From: Trichodelitschia bisporula
Taxonomy: Eukaryota
Length of the DNA: 64,000 nt
Direction: 5' to 3'
NCBI GenBank assembly: GCA_010356995.1
Contig: ML996695.1
Span: forward strand, 381,061-445,060
Below are positions 13,547 to 23,553 of this stretch, piece by piece (position 1 is the first letter of the stretch; each line of letters starts with the position of its first letter). Below the pieces are notes generated by a model that was not told where the DNA came from, searched no databases, and saw only the letters and a program-made list of their open reading frames with translations. The position numbers and the translations under genes were made by a program.

Positions 13547-14505
13547 ATGTCCCTCTCCCACCTCCGGCGACCAGCCGTCGCACTACTCCGCCAACCCCCA
13601 CAATGGCGCCCCTCCCTCACACATACACGGGCCCTCACCCTCACGCGCACCCTCCAAGCCCGCAGCGGCGCCCGCGGCGACCCAATGGAATACATGCGGC
13701 GAGGGGGTGAGTCGCAGCCGGCGCCGCGAGCCCAGGCGCGCGAGAGGGACGAGAGTAGCCTCCCGAAGGACGTCGGGCTATTCCCCGGTAACACCCTTTC
13801 CCAGTCCCCCCCCCACATCTCCGTCTAACGCACTCAGACACCCTCGTCATGCCAACGGGCCGCGCTCTCCCCTCCCTCATCTCCAACCCCCGCGACCGCC
13901 TCTTCCTCGAATACCAGCGACTGGTGCAGCGCCTCAAAGACGTAGGCAGCCAAGTACACACCCGCTTCGTGGCCTTCCGCGACCAGAAACAGGCGCCTAA
14001 GTTGGGACGCAAGACGATAGTCCCCGCTGCCAAGAGCTTGCATGTGCAGTTGTACGACTCGCTAGCTGCCGGCGATGTCGATGCGTTGCGGAGCATCTGC
14101 GGCGAGAACCTCTTTACGCAGTATGCGGCGAGGATTGGCCGCCGTGGACAGCACGACCGCTACGAGTGGACCTTGTTGAGCCACTCGAACCGGCCTCGCA
14201 TCGTTAGCAACAAGATTACGACGCTCCCGCTTCAGATTGGAAACAAGCCGGTTGCCTATCAACAGGCCGTTGTACTCATCCGCAGTCGCCAGCGGCTACG
14301 CAAGGGAAGGTACGATCCACTTGAGAAAGAGGTCAAGTGGAAATCTCCTTCTACGGAGAAGGAAAAGACCATCCCCGAATACATGGTGGTGCAAAGGCGC
14401 TTCATTCGGGATCAGTGGGAGCCGTGGATAGTCTGGGGCTTCATCACCCCGACAAGCGTCAAGGGGCTAAGGGAGTCGTTGTCGCAGGTCAACCTGGAGG
14501 AATAG
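13547..14505 (+). CDS. Mitochondrial Tim44-like domain protein (mL45/Mba1-like); intron 13788-13837
   Basis: Arg/Leu/Ser-rich presequence MSLSHLRRPAVALLR. C-terminal LYDSLAAGD, QQAVVLIRSRQ, EYMVVQRR, WIVWG pattern typical of Tim44-like folds. Confidence 0.75.
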
Positions 14506-14926
14506 AGCACAAAGGCGCCTATCTGGCGGGGAGAGAGCATGCCATGCTGGCAAATGTACAACAGTCAACAGATATATCTTTACTCGATGGCTACTGTAAA
14601 AAGCACCCTGTAGAGATCCCTCATTGTCCACGCAGAAACAGAGACCGAAACTTGGGCTGCCAATGTCACAACCCTCAACGCAAAAGCATAATAAAAACAA
14701 ACGGACAACATCCATAGCTACTTGCTCAACCGATAATCCACGGGTATCATCTCCGCATGCCGCCCCATTGTACATCCCAAAACGTAACCCAGCCATCACA
14801 AAACAACAAGGATGCGACTTTCTCATGTACCGATCCACCAGGTATGCTTCTCGATGAGAAAGTTGTCAAAGCCGAAAACCTCTTGCCGGGGTGGCGGGCG
14901 GGGGACTGCGACGAGTGACTTGTAGA

Positions 14927-15680
14927 CTAGAAACCGTGGACCTTTATGGTCTTGGAGTCAATGTCGAGCCCATCCTTGTCGATGAGGAAGTCCTTGACAG
15001 CATTGCGCTGATCGCCCTGAAGCTGAATCACGTCGCCAGCCTTCTCATCGTTCACGATGGTGCCATTGCAAGCAAACCGCTTCTTGATGACCTTCAGAAT
15101 CTTCTTCAGGTCAAACTTGTTGGGAATGCCTTCGATCGTAGTCAGAGTCTTGCGACCATTCCGCTCTGTAATGGGTGTTAGTTTGTGGACGGGCAAGAAT
15201 CTGCCGTTAGAGGCAAGAACTCACGCTGAATGCGGATATGGATATCTACGCCATGGTTAGCCTTTGCTGACAGGGGTATTCAGGGAGCGGGGTTACTAAC
15301 TCGTCTGCTGGGTTTTCTGACTAGTCTCTACGGTGTCCTGATCGGCTGCATCCGCAAAGGGATCTATGGCGAGTTAGCAGGTGCGTTCCAGCGTACAAAG
15401 GAGCAAGTGCAGTGCCGCCGGATGACGCCGATAGGTGACGCCGAACGCCGTGTCTCAGAAATGCGCCAAGTAAATACCGGATCCGCACTTGGACGACAAA
15501 GGACGGCGATGTAGGGGAGCATGAATGCGCAAACGTAGTGTAACATACCGAAAGACCTGGGCAACGTCAGTATCGATCGCTTCAAACTGTAGCAAGGAGG
15601 ATTTTGGAGATGAAGCGGGGGTGGTGGCAGAACGGATGGAAAAGCGGGACTTACTTAAGGTTCTGGATCTCCGTGGACAT
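14927..15680 (-). CDS. SUI1: Translation initiation factor eIF1 (118 aa; exons 15680-15655, 15556-15549, 15363-15301, 15245-15225, 15165-14927)
   Basis: Assembled MSTEIQNLKSFDPFADA...IHIRIQQRNGRKTLTTIEG...FACNG...IQLQGDQR...IKVHGF*. All introns are GT-AG with branch points and the exon lengths sum to 357 nt. Confidence 0.97.
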
Positions 15681-15683
15681 ACG
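15677..15683 (-). promoter_or_regulatory. Suboptimal start-codon context CGU-AUG-U of eIF1 (autoregulatory element)
   Basis: Minus strand reads CTCGT ATG TCC, the same poor context known for yeast SUI1. Confidence 0.8.
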
Positions 15684-16728
15684 AGATCTGTGGCGGTGCC
15701 TGGACTAAGTGTGTTGGAAGAGAAGGCTCGTGGAGACCTGCTGAGAGCTGGACTCGTGGGCTTGTTTGTTTTGGAGAGCGTGGGGATGTGGATGGAGTTG
15801 CTTTGGAGAGAATGGAGAATCACACGAGTTGTAGGTTCAGGGTTGAGTGATGGAGGGGAGGGGGGGTGGGTTCGAGCCAAGGGCTTCTTCGGGCAGCTTT
15901 TAATCCCGCCGGGTGGCCAGTGCTTGAGGGGAGGGGAGGGGGCAGTGTGAATGGATGACTGTGATTTGACTGGGGTGTCTGGGGCAAAGAATGGGAGGAG
16001 CGGAGAGAGAGAGAGAGAGGCGTGAGAGGGCAACACACATGACTATGGGGCTTAGATTGCTTGGCAAAAGGAAAGCTTGGTCAAAAGTGGCGGAGCATTC
16101 GAGAGACTGCCACTCACACGTGATCAAACCTGCCCCTCTTTCTTGTCTCTCTCGTCTTGTCTCTTGGGCAACGTCAACACTTCTCACTCCTCACTCCTCA
16201 CTCCTCACTCCCAATCGAGACGTCCTGATCTCGGACATTCGGAACAACTCCCGTCGGGCGAACGTGGACGCCTGCTATGGCCATCTGCTACGTACGGTAC
16301 GGTACATCGTTGCTCAAGGCTGGAAGAAGCTCTGTCCTGGCCTGTGAATCTGTGTAGTAGCTGGAAGATCATGTTTCGCTGTTATCGACACTTCGTACTG
16401 TAAATGGGCAACGTCTTCGCAGGAGGCAGCTCGGCCGTGCCTGTCCAAGTTTATGAGACATTTGCCTCACTGGCTATGATTCGATATGCATGTCTCTGCC
16501 AGGGACTCTCGGCATATTGGTCCCATTCCCAGGCATCAAGCCGGCAAGCCGATGCACAATCAAATCAGAGAACATATCGTGATATTCCTTTTGAAGACTG
16601 TCGCTCAAATCATCAAGTTGACAAACATCGTTAACCTATTCAAAGTCTCATGACAAAATATCAAGAAGCTAAGCGCGTTCCAAAGTGCCAACTTTTGTCA
16701 AACATCACCGGGCACAGTGCCGTCGGTC

Positions 16729-19700
16729 TCAAGCCCCAGTCCTCGGATGCAGAGTGAGATCCGACAGATGCGTGAGAACGCCAGGCTGAAGCCGTGAAGC
16801 CAATCCAGCAAACTGCCCCAAACCACCCAAGATCCCACCAACCCTCTGACCAGCAACAAGCCGCGACCCAAGCACCTTGTCTCCCCCAGCAGCGTCCAGC
16901 GTCGAAATCCCCACCTGAGCCTTGTCCAGCCCGACGGGAACTTTGAGCCGCAACCGGCCTTCGAGCACCAGGCCACCAGGCTGGACCATGTTGAACGAAT
17001 GCGTGTTCACCTTACCGGCAACCATCGACGTAACATCGAGCTTGGCAGAGCTCAGCCTCGCCGCCACGCTCTTGAGCTCGATCAAGCCAAGGCCAGGCTT
17101 GGGCAGCAGCGTAATGGCACCCGGAGCCGTGGCCGTGAGATCGAACTTCATGACTACCGAGTCATGCGTCATGCCCATGCGCTGCATCAGCGTGATGGTG
17201 TGCGTCTTCGCCCGCGCCGACGCAACCGTGATTTCGCTGTTAACCGTGCCCAGCGCCTTGGCTTCGATGTGTGTCGTCTCGCCCTGGTCGATGGGCGCTG
17301 AAATGGTAAACTGCGTGGTGCCCGATTTGACCAGTTGCTGGTGCGTGCCGCCGCCCTGCTTGCCGCGCACGCTGATCTGGAAGTTGTTGGTTGGCTGGAA
17401 GGGTGTAAGGCGTGATTCCAATGCCGTGAGCGGGAGGAGTGGGTTCAAGTTGATGGGCGTGCCGGCTGACAGCAGGCTCGAGAGCGCTGATGACGCGGGC
17501 TGCATCGGCAGGATGGAGGCATTTGGCGCTTGATATCCGCTCGTGAATTTTAGCTCCCCAACACCGCCGTCGCCGAACATGATGGGTGTGTTGACAAAGT
17601 ACCCGTCCAGCTTGCGCCCGGCTTGCAAGGCGCGGATGGCGCGGCCGCTGTGCGCGCTCAGGTCTCCGCCATCTGCCGAGTTGAGGCTTGCCGTCTCCGT
17701 GTCGTTCCCCATAACGATGATGGTGCCTGCGAGGATGAGGAGAATGGCATCCCAAACCGGAGTGCGAGGCGCCGCGTTCAGGACGCTCCATGGCATGTAG
17801 TGGAGCCTGCCCCCACTCCATTCGGCTCCTGCGTACAGATTGCCGCCATCATACTTCCACGTGTTGTTGGTATTGTCAACCTCAATTGTTCGGATCTGGT
17901 CCGGGAAGTTGGGATCATGGATTGAAATCTTCCACGGCCGCGAGGATGAGTCCCAACCGATTGGATATATAGTGTGTGGGGCACCGCTAAAATCCACATT
18001 CTGAGAGATACAGAGGACGGGGTGATCTCCGCTGTTGAAACGATCGCGACTGTCGTTGAAGACTCGGACTGGATTGTGCGTATTGCCGGCCAGGAAGGTG
18101 CCGACGAACCACCAAATAGGAGCTGCTCCCACCTGGTACAAGTGCTTCACATTGAACACTGGCTGAAGCTGATTCCAGTCACCGAAGCGGTTGATCGGAA
18201 GACTGAAAAGACTCAGACCATGGCGAGCGTAGATGGCCTCGAGAGACATGCCGAAGCAGTTTCCGCCCTTCGCCAGGTGCTTCGCAACGGCTTCGTAAAA
18301 CGCCTTGTCCAGCCAATCCAGCGGGTCGTACACCTCCGGCGACGAGTCAACATCGCGGAACGCTTCAGCGTAGGTTTGATAGCTGATCGGATCGTTGCCC
18401 CTGTTCCTTGCTCCGGCGCCCCAATACTTCTCGAGCTCGGTGAGCGCGGATAAGTTGACCTGGGGGTGGACGGCAGAAGTGATGTTGTTGATTTTAGCGA
18501 AACCTCCGGAGCTGAAGATACCATTGTTCTCTCGCAGACCCCAGGCATTGGCGGAATTGAGCTGCTTGGTCCATGTACCGAGATGATCGTCACCTCCGCC
18601 AAATGGCGCGCCGCCGTCCGAGTCCCAGACATCCAAAACAACGGTGATTTGCTTCGTCGGGTTGGGGGTCATGACGGTGGGGAACTCAATGTTGACATCC
18701 ATGTCATTGCGGCCATCCCAGGAGCCTGAGGACGGGAACCGCTCTCGATAGAGTGTGTTGTTGTCTTCGTTGATTGTCGCGCTGAAGTAGAGGTCGTTCT
18801 GGCCCATGAACAGCCCTTCACTCTCCACCGTGTTGAGATTCCCAACGAAAAATTTGAAGGGGTTGATGATCTGAATGGAGCTGAAGCTGCCGTACCAGGT
18901 GATGGCGCCGTTCTCGAAGCCATTCGTGCGGCCGCCGCCTGGGATATCCATCTCATCGGTCACTGGGAGGCCCAATCCGCTCAGAGGCCCCTTCAAGTCC
19001 ATCCATTTCGCACGAATGTCGCCGTAAATGATGTGGGCATTTGTCTGCGGCGACCAGTAGATGTCGCAACCTTCGAACTTGCTCAGGCGCACGTTCCGCT
19101 CCACGTTGCCATCCTTGACGCCTTTGACAATCATCTCATCAGACAGTGGGAAGCCCCACTTCGTAGGCCCTCCGGTATTCTGGTAGGCATCCCGGATGGA
19201 ACCTATGACAATATGTGCGCTCGGAGAGCCGTTGCGGTAGAGAGCAGTCGCTCTCTGCATCCGCTGAGAAACGCCGTTGGGAACATTCTGTGGAGGTTCC
19301 ACCGGCAATCCCCAGTCCTGGGACTCTCCAGTAGCTTCATAGTGCAGGTAGAGTTGAGCCGTCACTTCGAAGGCGCCAGTGGCAGACGACCAGTAGATAC
19401 CGCCTCCTTGGAACAGACTCTTCCGGGCACCTTGGACGTAGGCAGAGGTCTCGTCAGTGACGAGATATCCGAGCGCGGATCTGGTGGCATCCGAAAGCGC
19501 CCTGTATCTCTGCAAAATGATGCCGTACATGAGGAAGGCAGAGCTGGCAGCGGAGTGGTACATGATGACACCTTGGTTGTAGTTCTGACTCCAGGTTGCA
19601 GTCACGGCGCTGAAGGTAGTATTGGACGTGGGGACGCCCATGTCCATAACCAGGCGGCTCATTTCCAACTTGGTGGTGATGAACCACACCGGTGAGAAGC

Positions 19701-20331
19701 GTTGACCATCCATGATTGGCTCCAGCTCAATCGGGATCCCGAAGCCAACGCGGACGGAAGCCAGCTGGCCCATGAACCGATTTGCAGCGTCTTTGCCGCC
19801 AATGACGATAGTCTTGACTGCGTCGGAAAGCGCAATATTTCCCGTAGTTCCGAAGCCGTGGCAGCCAGCAGGGTTTCCATCAATGAAAAGAAAGAGCGTG
19901 TCCATGTCGTATGCAAACTGAGCCAAATGCCAGCCGGTTGTGAGGGTCGGGCTGGAGAAAGTGTCTGTCCCGCGCCAGGCGGTACTCCCCATGATTTTGA
20001 CAGACACGACCAATTTCACCGAGTTTCCTGTGCCAACAAGCTCCAGCATGAAAGGGAGCCGTTCCGATTCAACAAGCGTCTGACGTCCGGGTAAGGCATC
20101 AGCCTGAAAGACAACCGAGCCATTGAACCGAGCTTCGTTGATGACTTCCACGTTTTTGATATCTACCTGGATAGGACCGGACCCCAACCGAGCGGCCTGC
20201 GGGAAGTTTTGGCCCTGGAAAGCGCCTGGTCCGGTACCAATCGTGGCATCGGCGGCGAGCGTAACTGGGAGAGAGCCATCTGGATTGGCAACTTGCTTGC
20301 TCGTGAAGACATAATCGAGGAAATAGCTCAT
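16729..20331 (-). CDS. Intronless ~1200-aa multidomain protein: LamG/ConA-like + LGFP repeats + C2-like + putative papain-like (Cys-His-Asp) domain
   Basis: Single ORF with first ATG at 20331. GWHLAQFAYD..LFLFIDG (LamG-like). Repeats LGYLVTDE..FQGGGIYWS, WGFPLSDE..FEGCDIYWS, LGLPVTDE..FENGAITW. VWDSDG..DDHLG. GGNCFGMS...PHTIYP...IHDPNFP. Confidence 0.85.
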   Translation of the reverse strand: MSYFLDYVFTSKQVANPDGSLPVTLAADATIGTGPGAFQGQNFPQAARLGSGPIQVDIKNVEVINEARFNGSVVFQADALPGRQTLVESERLPFMLELVGTGNSVKLVVSVKIMGSTAWRGTDTFSSPTLTTGWHLAQFAYDMDTLFLFIDGNPAGCHGFGTTGNIALSDAVKTIVIGGKDAANRFMGQLASVRVGFGIPIELEPIMDGQRFSPVWFITTKLEMSRLVMDMGVPTSNTTFSAVTATWSQNYNQGVIMYHSAASSAFLMYGIILQRYRALSDATRSALGYLVTDETSAYVQGARKSLFQGGGIYWSSATGAFEVTAQLYLHYEATGESQDWGLPVEPPQNVPNGVSQRMQRATALYRNGSPSAHIVIGSIRDAYQNTGGPTKWGFPLSDEMIVKGVKDGNVERNVRLSKFEGCDIYWSPQTNAHIIYGDIRAKWMDLKGPLSGLGLPVTDEMDIPGGGRTNGFENGAITWYGSFSSIQIINPFKFFVGNLNTVESEGLFMGQNDLYFSATINEDNNTLYRERFPSSGSWDGRNDMDVNIEFPTVMTPNPTKQITVVLDVWDSDGGAPFGGGDDHLGTWTKQLNSANAWGLRENNGIFSSGGFAKINNITSAVHPQVNLSALTELEKYWGAGARNRGNDPISYQTYAEAFRDVDSSPEVYDPLDWLDKAFYEAVAKHLAKGGNCFGMSLEAIYARHGLSLFSLPINRFGDWNQLQPVFNVKHLYQVGAAPIWWFVGTFLAGNTHNPVRVFNDSRDRFNSGDHPVLCISQNVDFSGAPHTIYPIGWDSSSRPWKISIHDPNFPDQIRTIEVDNTNNTWKYDGGNLYAGAEWSGGRLHYMPWSVLNAAPRTPVWDAILLILAGTIIVMGNDTETASLNSADGGDLSAHSGRAIRALQAGRKLDGYFVNTPIMFGDGGVGELKFTSGYQAPNASILPMQPASSALSSLLSAGTPINLNPLLPLTALESRLTPFQPTNNFQISVRGKQGGGTHQQLVKSGTTQFTISAPIDQGETTHIEAKALGTVNSEITVASARAKTHTITLMQRMGMTHDSVVMKFDLTATAPGAITLLPKPGLGLIELKSVAARLSSAKLDVTSMVAGKVNTHSFNMVQPGGLVLEGRLRLKVPVGLDKAQVGISTLDAAGGDKVLGSRLVAGQRVGGILGGLGQFAGLASRLQPGVLTHLSDLTLHPRTGA

Positions 20332-21657
20332 GATGAAAGTTGCTGTTCTCAGTTTACTCAAAATGGAAGGTGGACTGCTGTAAGTATGAGGCAGCGGCTT
20401 CCGGTTCTTTTAAGTTCAGCACTCCATCGCCTCGTGGAAGCCCAGGACACATCGTAGAGGTCATTTCAGCCCCCATCGCCTTCAGCAGAGGACTGGATGC
20501 GCCAAGATGGACTGACCCGGAGCTGGATAGCCACATTGCCCTCATGGTCGAGGCGGAGCATCATGTGGGGGATTAACGGCAGAAACGCACCAGGATTGGA
20601 CCATGAATGGTAACGAGTGCTGTGAGGGGTTGATAGAAGTGGTGAGAGGCAGCATCTGCCGTACAGCGGGACTGAAGTTGTAAAACTGCAGGAGTACATG
20701 TTCGTGGAGCAGCGCCAACTTTTTGTATTTTATCCAAGTGATGTGGATCTTACCTTCCTGTCATGTACGTAGTGGAGAGATAGGTAAGTTCTAGCTTAGA
20801 GATGTAACTTGAATGCTCTGTATTTTACGACTTTCAAGATAGCCACGTTCAAACTCTTGGGGAAGAGGGCGTTTGTTCGCTAACGGCGATCAGAACATTA
20901 GCAGATATCACGAAGCTCCGCCAAATACTGGTAGGCATCCTCATTGCATAGGATTCCATGATGGAACAGCTGAAGGAAGAGGCGGGGTAAAGAGCTTGGC
21001 TAGAAAGCTTGTATTAGCAACTGCGGTAGGCGGAGAGTCCGCTAAATATCACATTTGATGCATCTAGCCGCAGCTGAAAGTCGAAAGCAAGGAATATGCG
21101 AGGCAGTAGACTGCTCGAATGAAACTGCCTGCGTTCATGTGCAACTTTGAAATGCACCAATACTCCTGGGAGATTTCAGCCATTTTCCTGTACATGGAAA
21201 GGATCACAAACCGGCCCGTGTTACGTAGGTGCATTCAATACTCCCTCACGTTCGTGGCCACCTGTGATGTAGGCACGAGCGAAATATGATGCTTGTATGT
21301 GGATTTGAACGACTGCATGGAGTGAAGCTGCAGGACATCTGCTTTACGAGCCACCCACCAAGCTGCTGGCATCGGTTAGGACTCAGAGACGTCTCTGTTC
21401 AGTGGTGATGCACGGTTTTTGTCTCGAAGACTACAAGAGGGACGTTGAATCGAAGTGGAGCCCAGGCCCGGCCTGGATGTACCAACCCGAAAAAGCAATT
21501 AGCGCCAGATTTGGGGGCGGAAACCCTGCATCTCCACGTGCATTCGCGATCGCGCTTACAGCACCGCGCTTACGCGACGTGACGTCCATATCTACTCCGA
21601 ATTATCAACTTCTTGATAGCAATCCATCAATACAGTTCTCTCAGACTCCCGATCATC

Positions 21658-22529
21658 ATGCCACCACGCAAACGAGCTGCTGCCGCGGACGCTGAAGCAC
21701 CGCCCACAAAGCAGCAAAAGAAGACCTCCACCCCGGCTCCCAGCCAGCGAATAACGCGCCAAAGCGTGAGGTCCGGAGGCACAGCAACACCTGCAGTCGA
21801 AGCTGTGACTGAAGGCAAGGCAACAAAGGCGAAGCGGGCGCCTGCACCCCGAAAAGTCACGCCAGCGCCGTCAAAGGCAAAGAAATCCAAAGAGTCCAGA
21901 ACATCACCGCCTTCCAATGCAGCCCCTGCATCTGCAGCCGCTGGAGACCCAGAACGACAACCGGGGGAGAGGCGCTACTGGCTCATGAAGGCTGAGCCCA
22001 ACTCTCGGATTGAGAAGGGTATCGACGTCAAGTTCTCTATCGATGATTTGGCGGCAAAGACGGAGCCGGAGACTTGGGATGGAATCCGGAACCACGTGGC
22101 CAAGAACAACCTTCTTGCCATGAAGAAGGGTGACTTGGCCTTCTTTTATCACAGCAACTGTAAAGTGCCGGGAGTAGTCGGGATTATGGAGATTGTGGGG
22201 GAGGCACAAGTGGATGGTAAGTCTCACGTCCCGGAGGAGCGCCATGACTGATTTGCTCGATAGAAACTGCCTGGGATCCCAAATCGCCCTACTACGATCC
22301 CAAATGTTCATCTGATAAACCAAAATGGTTTTGCCCTTTGGTAGAGTTCAGAAAGAAGTTCAACACCATCGTGACGCTTGAGACGCTGAAGAAGGAATGC
22401 CAACCGGGGACGCCGCTTGCGAATATCCAGCTTCTTAAACTGAGCCGCCTCAGCGTCAGTAAAGTGTCAAGAGACGAGTGGGATCACATCATCAAACTGG
22501 CCGAACAGCAAGAAGCTGCTGGAGAGTGA
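21658..22529 (+). CDS. EVE-domain protein (thymocyte nuclear protein 1-like); intron 22217-22263
   Basis: YWLMKAEP, KFSIDDL, WDGIRNHVAKN, GDLAFFYHSNCKVPG, PYYDPK, SRLSVSKV; basic N-terminal tail. Confidence 0.93.
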
Positions 22530-23553
22530 GCAATGGACTGTCGTAAACCCAAATACAAGTAGCCTCCCAGGTTATAATAATAATTGCAAGCCGGGATGGC
22601 TAACGGCAGCGGACTCCGTCGCCCATCCCATGGAACAACATTCTGCAGATCTCGACACGTTTAGCCTGATACATTTACCACTCGAGTCTCTTTTCCACAC
22701 CAGTCGTACAGTTTCTGGCCTCAGGAGTTTTGGTCCGATCAGAAATGCCGCTACGCTCGTGAAAGCCCTCCCAGTCCTAGTCCCAATGGTGTGTTGAATT
22801 TTTATCTGGATAATCCAGCTAGTAACGCTAGTGGGATGTTGCTCATCGGCCCTGAAGCGTGCGGGGCGCGGTACTTGGGGGTACTTTGATACTCCCTAAC
22901 TAGAATGTGATGTGGTAATAGATTCACCTTCTGCGTTTCAGGAGGATGATGACTCTAGTCTTTCGCTTTGTGTTTGCCATACAAACGAAGCTAAGATTCC
23001 TAGGCTTCGGCGGATGACTAGTACTGTCACTATGACCTCCAAACTCACCTTCGTGTCCCCATGGTAGTCCTGGTTCTTGGTAGAAGCGTAGCATAGATGT
23101 ATTCGCTTCGCTTCCACGCTGACTCCAACTTTCAGGGGCCCCCGCTTCGGTCAAAAGCGCTCTTAGCAAACACGCAGCCAATAAATCTCCAGCCTTCGCC
23201 CTCTCTCCGTTGGCGATCAGCTACGGTTCTTAATCAGCAGCCCATCACTTGAAAATATCACCCAGAAGTCTTCACCCTGCCACACCGTGCACTATACCGA
23301 AACCGTTACGGCACCGAACGACTCAAGATCTCTGGATCTTTTCTCCTTCGCCGTGGCCTTTTTCAGTTCTCACCGATCTGAACTGCTTCAGGCAAGCCTT
23401 GTCGACGCCAAATTCTAAAGTTGGACAGCAGCAAATAAACGCACGGAAGCACTTGAGCATAACTACACAACATATATCATCTTTTTCCCTATGATTCTTA
23501 CGTCGACGCCTATGCTATACGGGGAGAATGCAAGACCACGCTCCGCTCCCGTT

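Follow-up and report, generated by a model that had tools for sequence, protein, structure and literature searches.

A predicted papain-like cysteine hydrolase family in LGFP-repeat proteins of bacteria and of the fungus Trichodelitschia bisporula

The stretch of DNA analyzed here, referred to below as the window, comprises 64,000 nucleotides of contig ML996695.1 of the fungus Trichodelitschia bisporula (positions 381,061 to 445,060 of assembly GCA_010356995.1). A single open reading frame (ORF) of 3603 bases on its minus strand, with the first ATG at window position 20331, encodes a protein of 1200 amino acids, P0001, that carries LGFP repeats. The order of a Cys, a His, and an Asp residue in P0001 had been noticed from the sequence and interpreted as a papain-like catalytic triad (hereafter, the original prediction). 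Here, we propose that residues of about 630–870 constitute a catalytically competent papain-like (clan-CA-type) cysteine hydrolase, the family of which matches no Pfam or NCBIfam model. Based on structure models and on the conservation of homologous sequences, we assign this prediction a probability of about three in four.

Organization of the gene and the encoded protein

The features of the gene and of P0001 are collected in Table 1. The short motifs GGNCFGMSL, GAPHTIYP, and ISIHDPNFP were all found within this one ORF, with the Cys, His, and Asp codons at the places given in the original prediction. The LGFP repeats and the LamG-like domain, which had also been named there, were both recovered. 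LGFP (PF08310) was detected with an E-value of 7e-39 and 132.4 bits against a cut-off of 22, in five stretches that form a tandem array, and was the sole Pfam family found in full-length P0001. The N-terminal part matched the hidden Markov model (HMM) of LamG / Laminin_G_3 (PF13385), a concanavalin-like lectin, and was modeled as a jelly roll. Sequence and profile searches of solved structures with P0001 retrieved relatives only for the LGFP part, namely the Corynebacterium proteins PS1/MytA, and this part also matched MytA structurally. The C-terminal region gave a weak Pfam match to GO-like_E_set (E 0.1) and is exchanged for other C-terminal modules in distant relatives.

Table 1. Features of the LGFP-repeat gene and its product (window positions; residue numbers of P0001)
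Feature	Window position	Strand	Basis
P0001 coding sequence, intronless, stop codon included	16729..20331	-	ORF list and translation; RNA-type contig without a joint across it
LamG / concanavalin-like jelly-roll domain, N-terminal, residues 1–206	19714..20331	-	
Five LGFP repeats, residues about 230–485	18877..19644	-	
Eight-strand beta sandwich, residues 487–623, with acidic motifs GQNDLY and VWDSDG...DDHLG; "C2-like" is an unproven label	18463..18873	-	Secondary structure of the full-length model
Papain-like cysteine peptidase-type domain (predicted), residues about 630–870	17722..18444	-	AlphaFold2 model, fold searches
Cys692 codon TGC, putative nucleophile, N-terminus of helix 692–703	18256..18258	-	Reverse-complement read, translation, models
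His786 codon CAC, putative general base, first residue of strand 786–794	17974..17976	-	Reverse-complement read, translation, models
Asp806 codon GAT, putative third triad residue, just after strand 800–805, in the D-P-N-F motif	17914..17916	-	Reverse-complement read, translation, models
Hydrophobic 19-mer, highly conserved, residues 857–875 (TPVWDAILLILAGTIIVMG), end of the protease domain	17707..17763	-	Kyte-Doolittle scan, alignment columns
C-terminal beta-rich region, residues 984–1160, least conserved part of P0001	16852..17382	-	Model secondary structure
Transcript contig	16132..21436	-	X1 record 2, 5206 nt; crosses the whole uninterrupted ORF
Two spliced introns upstream of the ORF	21000–21052, 21165–21210	-	X1 contig joints

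The model of all 1200 residues had a predicted local distance difference test value (pLDDT) of 85 and a predicted template modeling score (pTM) of 0.77. When this model was searched with VIA-align and Foldseek, the listings were filled by matches to LamG and LGFP. A hydrophobicity scan found no N-terminal hydrophobic signal in P0001, in agreement with the earlier remark that no signal peptide is evident.

The hydrophobic 19-mer at the end of the protease domain had a Kyte-Doolittle mean of 1.85, the highest 19-residue value in P0001, and was its sole stretch in the transmembrane range. Its columns are strongly conserved, with the consensus PRTP(I/V)WDAILL(L/I)LAGT(I/V)(I/L)I(L)G. Residues 860–866 had a pLDDT below 50 in the full-length model, yet a high one in the domain-only model. 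The 19-mer may be buried in the core, serve as a hinge, or act on membranes.

The residues between the LGFP repeats and the protease domain form eight strands in the full-length model, and the motif VWDSDG...DDHLG, which had previously been described as part of an acidic C2-like segment, was located at residues 568–585 within this sandwich. The acidic motifs of the sandwich and residues N512, D572, G585, W597, and G598 were invariant among the aligned homologs. The motifs GQNDLY and VWDSD...DDHLG presumably resemble the Ca2+-binding loops of C2 domains. The acidic motif and its all-beta setting were thus borne out; the hints of a C2 domain proper, however, were weak. The sole sequence match of the segment in the PDB was to the C2 loops of otoferlin (E 0.07), its Atlas leads were sub-threshold (score 0.77, below the useful range), and the window protein's own segment gave no Pfam match.

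Fold of the protease-like domain

The AlphaFold2 model of residues 624–900, built on an alignment of 114 rows, had a mean pLDDT of 93 and a pTM of 0.86. In domain numbering, the Cys opens helix 69–80, the His opens strand 163–171, and the Asp follows strand 177–182; the His strand and the strand preceding Asp806 are parts of the same hairpin. The full-length model repeats this placement for all three residues (Table 1). A Cys at the N-terminus of a helix, then a His in the sheet, and then an Asp or Asn is the arrangement expected of the papain fold (clan CA type), and the secondary structure of the model has it. In the models, the placement of the triad is therefore canonical for the papain type.

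The search of the domain model against the PDB with Foldseek returned no match at E<=0.001, and its weak best rows were staphopain, IdeS/Mac-1, PCAT1, GtgE, and cathepsin B. Among the 50 best structural neighbors, at least 44 were cysteine peptidases or papain- or transglutaminase-like enzymes, as judged by their titles and general knowledge. The fold of six others was not evident from the title (CdiA-CT, BtaeB-CTD, P210 CD lyase, CtaG, CcbD, and a "bacterial peptidase"). The searches of family libraries gave no name for the domain. Thus, hmmscan of residues 624–900 against Pfam-A found 0 families at E<=10, and NCBIfam returned nothing for P0001. PADLOC also returned nothing for P0001 and, for one homolog, a stray 14-bit BrxB row (E 0.0075) outside the protease domain. 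A search of the Atlas with the protease part yielded unnamed clusters only. The papain-fold reading of the Cys-His-Asp order, as made in the original prediction, is supported by the confident model and by its papain-like structural neighbors.

A papain fold with a working Cys-His-Asp center may also serve a chemistry other than proteolysis. The domain could be a transglutaminase, an acyl- or amidotransferase, a deamidase, or a gamma-glutamyl transpeptidase-like enzyme, with a glycan-linked compound or a small molecule as its substrate. The structural neighbors do include the pseudomurein endoisopeptidase PeiR (7.9), the biosynthetic enzymes CtaG (6.1) and CcbD (5.8), the deamidase OspI (5.4), and an NlpC/P60 enzyme (5.2), and the presence of LamG and LGFP suggests targets rich in carbohydrate. 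However, the leading structural matches were classical endopeptidases (staphopains, SpeB, interpain, and C39 enzymes), and the sequence by itself does not discriminate between the chemistries. We therefore regard a non-peptidase function as rather unlikely and retain the papain-like hydrolase as the preferred interpretation of the domain.

Conservation of the triad and relationship to family C58

Conservation of the three residues among homologs had been put forward as a check of the predicted triad, and the outcome was favorable. Cys, His, and Asp were invariant in alignments of 35, 114, and 125 homologs. A domain HMM run over 265 proteins gave 272 domain hits, and the counts for each column were made on the hits that cover it. 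Of the 255 hits covering the first column, 254 had Cys and one, in P0155, had Gly; the second column held His in all but one of 262 (Val in P0259). The third column, covered by 262 hits, contained Asp in 220, Asn in 41, and Glu in one (P0156). Pro807 was kept in 254 and Asn808 in 244 covering hits; P807 and N808, together with G690, G694, and Q733, were the near-invariant positions besides the triad. As far as the alignments can tell, the triad motif is far beyond chance. The third residue of papain-type triads is Asn in papain and Asp in C58 peptidases. The alternation of Asp and Asn in the third column is thus what would be expected of a papain-type enzyme, which speaks for a catalytic rather than a structural role.

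The original prediction had assigned the motif C...H...DPN to the YopT/AvrPphB (C58) type. According to this interpretation, the domain would be a true member of MEROPS family C58, with a Cys-His-Asp center that may cut both its own chain and targets associated with membranes. For comparison, yopT was taken from Yersinia enterocolitica pYVe227, and 21 members of the YopT family were collected and aligned. Their invariant positions were C139, H258, and D274-P275-N276-F277. The G-G-N-C and D-P-N-F motifs of the window protein are collinear with these invariants, and its P807 and N808 are near-invariant in its own family. Thus, the likeness of the motifs is real, although short motifs alone do not establish membership. 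Of all structural neighbors, AvrPphB was the most similar in sequence, with 20% identity over 131 aligned residues; by Z it ranked 18th (6.5), behind enzymes of C47, C10, and C39.

The profile comparisons did not extend the likeness beyond the motifs. The Pfam-A search described above, in which no family was found for residues 624–900, presumably covered Peptidase_C58, since PF03543 is precomputed on YopT relatives. The single YopT sequence gave no alignment within the protease domain when compared with the family profile, and hhalign of the family profile with the YopT profile gave no match there (probability 0.45%). When hhalign was run greedily on the domain alone, it produced one collinear alignment of 196 columns with 19% identity and a score of 21, in which C692 was paired with C139, H786 with H258, and DPNF with DPNF. 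However, its P value was 0.064, and when the columns of the YopT alignment were shuffled, 17 of 272 versions scored as high. The YopT profile is shallow, consisting of 21 sequences mostly 44–56% identical to the first row; therefore, a deeper profile could change the outcome. A tblastn search of plasmids with YopT retrieved Yersinia only. Membership of C58 consequently seems unlikely to us. Our reading, made from the sequence comparisons, is that the domain would represent a new clan-CA-type family whose resemblance to C58 is at the level of motifs and which should not be filed in C58.

It is highly improbable that the triad arose by coincidence or survives as a relic in a scaffold without catalytic function: the substitutions in three of the 265 proteins (P0155, P0259, and P0156) would fit such a pseudoenzyme, but the near-total conservation of the triad across many bacterial phyla and fungi, with Asp to Asn as the sole common change, and the canonical positions of its residues in the secondary structure all argue against it.

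Domain architecture and distribution of the family

At E<=1e-3, the domain query retrieved 312 cluster representatives; 232 of them also passed E<=1e-10. According to the segment HMMs, the C2-like segment stands directly before the protease domain in 234 of the 265 proteins, and the full order of LamG, LGFP, C2-like segment, protease, and C-terminal region is present in 151. Judging by these sequences, the protease-like domain is, with few exceptions, preceded by LGFP repeats and by the C2-like sandwich of eight strands. A Pfam scan of 36 distant members detected LGFP in 27, FIMAH in three, twin-arginine translocation (TAT) signals and RTX repeats in two each, and F5/8-type-C and Big_2 in one each.

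Relatives were encoded in 105 of 203 candidate stretches from species-representative bacterial genomes. The phyla concerned include Bacteroidota, Actinomycetota, Cyanobacteriota, Pseudomonadota, Chloroflexota, Acidobacteriota, Myxococcota, Nitrospirota, and others. P0001 is 55–60% identical to the bacterial proteins over residues 480–900 and about 40–45% over the full length. On this sequence evidence, the gene occurs widely among bacteria, where it stands alone and in most cases encodes no signal peptide. The earlier description of the architecture as one without a characterized fungal counterpart accordingly needs a qualification: the architecture is not a fungal invention but one that many bacteria share. 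A tblastn search with residues 480–900 gave no match in the phage or plasmid collections, and the literature searches made on LGFP repeats turned up no account of the family.

By a crude hydrophobicity test, seven of the 140 homologs other than those with LamG-type N-termini resemble proteins with Sec or lipoprotein signals. Six distant members that lack LamG (P0164, P0167, P0179, P0217, P0221, and P0228) were observed to have lipoprotein, Sec, or TAT signals or RTX repeats. The same six carry varied C-terminal modules of the adhesion type (FIMAH, F5/8-type-C, and Big_2). The export signals and RTX repeats indicate that at least some members of the wider family are exported, in contrast to the LamG-type subfamily.

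Transcription and origin of the fungal gene

The window gene is transcribed. A contig of run X1 crosses the whole ORF and has two joints upstream of it (Table 1), with CT..AC ends on the plus strand, that is, GT..AG on the minus strand; these joints were absent from the DNA run X2. Runs X1 and X4 were accepted as RNA-derived because they contain such splice-type joints, which X2 lacks. The contigs of X1 and X4 also splice out introns of the flanking eIF1/SUI1-like and EVE-domain genes. In addition, a DNA contig bridges positions 15868–23000 and joins the ORF to both neighbors. The transcript begins with a leader of about 1006 nt, in which 23 upstream ATGs occur, and ends with a 3' tail of 597 nt. 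The leader (window 20332–21436, minus strand) suggests translational control, or else a separate non-coding transcript that was merged into the contig.

These data make it hardly credible that the ORF is a bacterial contamination of the assembly, as its lack of introns and the 55–60% identity of its central part to bacterial proteins might otherwise imply: the DNA contig links it to both neighbors, spliced contigs cover it together with the two leader introns while intron-bearing neighbors are spliced in the same runs, its guanine-plus-cytosine content (0.56–0.57 versus 0.53–0.54) matches that of the adjacent bins, and close relatives occur in two named fungi, Trichoglossum and Pyrenochaeta.

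On the phylogenetic tree, the window protein clustered with P0003, P0005 of Trichoglossum hirsutum, P0006, P0004, P0077 of Pyrenochaeta, P0041, and P0023 in a clade with a support of 100. The sequences around this clade, within which it was nested, were largely from Actinomycetota and Chloroflexota. On this topology, horizontal transfer from bacteria is the most likely origin of the fungal copies, its direction being inferred from the nesting.

A separate observation concerns the bacterial loci (L001–L080), whose phylum labels were scattered on the tree, with 22 label changes against a minimum of 12; for example, a betaproteobacterial row was placed inside Gaiellaceae. The gene thus seems to move between bacterial phyla too. 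Mis-binning of metagenome-assembled genomes could contribute to this scatter.

The genes on both sides were also inspected. The eIF1/SUI1-like gene occupies window positions 14000–15776 on the minus strand, and its ORF at 14927–15196 encodes a C-terminus of the SUI1 type. Introns are spliced out at 15166–15224 and 15246–15300, and there is a third joint at 15365–15652 with non-canonical ends and five extra letters. The contig depth of this gene was very high in the RNA-type runs. The EVE-domain-like gene (21577–22679, plus strand) has a Lys/Ala/Pro-rich N-terminus and one intron at 22216–22262. Its transcription diverges from that of the LGFP gene, and the ends of the two contigs are only about 140 bases apart, which suggests a shared bidirectional promoter.

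Predicted activity and significance

The proposed mechanism follows the placement of the triad. The thiolate of Cys692, at the N-terminus of its helix, would act as the nucleophile, and His786, at the start of its strand, would be the general base paired with it. Asp806, located after the neighboring strand, would orient His786. The most likely reaction would be the cleavage of a peptide or isopeptide bond. The protease may be the enzymatic core of a fixed module that runs from the LGFP repeats through the C2-like sandwich to the protease; in this subfamily, a LamG-type lectin domain stands before the module and beta-rich domains come after it. LamG and LGFP may bind a glycan or cell-wall-type ligand, bringing the protease to a decorated target and in this way choosing it, and the acidic C2-like sandwich may add a dependence on Ca2+ or on the membrane.

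Several points weigh against the proposed reading. The activity of the domain is deduced from its fold and conservation, and the juxtaposition of the triad is read from secondary-structure placement alone. No signal peptide was found in 95 of 96 LamG-type N-termini by the crude hydrophobicity test, which one of the 96 passed, and its absence from LamG-type members is a poor fit with cell-wall or extracellular glycan targets. Pfam C2 (PF00168) matched three of 73 homologous segments, with a best E-value of 0.011, so that the support for a C2 domain is weak. Among 48 flanking ORFs from 12 isolate genomes, there was no conserved neighborhood that would hint at a partner or substrate: no secretion-system, immunity-like, or protease-partner genes were found, and the sole recurring neighbor family was shared between two closely related Algoriphagus loci. 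As for the origin of the gene, the tree was a quick maximum-likelihood analysis (LG+G4) of 76 rows with a midpoint root and composition warnings on many rows. In addition, the fungal label of the clade rests on the window protein, Trichoglossum, and Pyrenochaeta, and not on its five other members.

A more far-reaching interpretation can be outlined, although we consider it quite improbable. The LGFP, C2-like, and protease triplet would then be a self-contained cytosolic device for detecting and cutting, used by many bacterial phyla and passed to filamentous fungi. Its lectin modules would recognize a glycan or a piece of cell wall that is foreign or out of place, Ca2+ or damage to the membrane would elicit a response of the sandwich, and the protease would cut a membrane-proximal target. 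Such a protein would be a calpain-like sensor of damage or invaders, belonging to a new family, and not a secreted toxin.

If active, the domain would define a new family of papain-like cysteine hydrolases with hundreds of sequence clusters in many bacterial phyla. The type of enzyme as such is known, but the family would be new to it and merits biochemical study. Its pairing with LGFP repeats and a C2-like sandwich is fixed and unusual, and the fragment 484–900 offers a biochemical target with a clear candidate nucleophile. The window gene would also illustrate how a large multidomain gene of bacteria has become established in the genome of a fungus and is transcribed there. For annotation, the domain should not be described as a YopT-type effector protease.

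Comparison with known systems

The staphopains A, B, and C (C47) and the C10 enzymes streptopain SpeB and interpain, which lead the structural matches, are 7–11% identical to the window domain and gave no sequence or profile match with it. Staphopains, SpeB, and interpain are secreted zymogens with pro-regions. Unlike the staphopains and SpeB, the window domain is embedded in a LamG-LGFP-C2-like protein of 1200 amino acids without a signal peptide. YopT and AvrPphB (C58), which have no significant HMM or profile-profile similarity to the domain, are type III effectors of about 30 kDa, whereas the domain described here is part of a large multidomain protein without secretion-system neighbors in the 12 isolate genomes. 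In the C39 domains, such as those of PCAT1 and ComA, the third residue and its context differ, and these domains are fused to ABC transporters; no C39 sequence match to the window domain was found.

With the calpains (MEROPS C2), the analogy is functional only and consists in a papain-like core beside a C2-like sandwich. Eukaryotic calpains are under the control of Ca2+. Calpain chains were not among the best 50 structural neighbors in either list, and the sandwich precedes the protease in the window protein, whereas the order is reversed in calpains. Bacterial calpain homologs are also on record (PMC4631099).

Finally, the LGFP repeats of mycoloyltransferase A / PS1 of Corynebacterium glutamicum (6sx4, 6swz) are linked to an esterase within a secreted envelope protein, whereas those of the window protein are joined to a predicted cysteine-hydrolase module and occur in a fungus.

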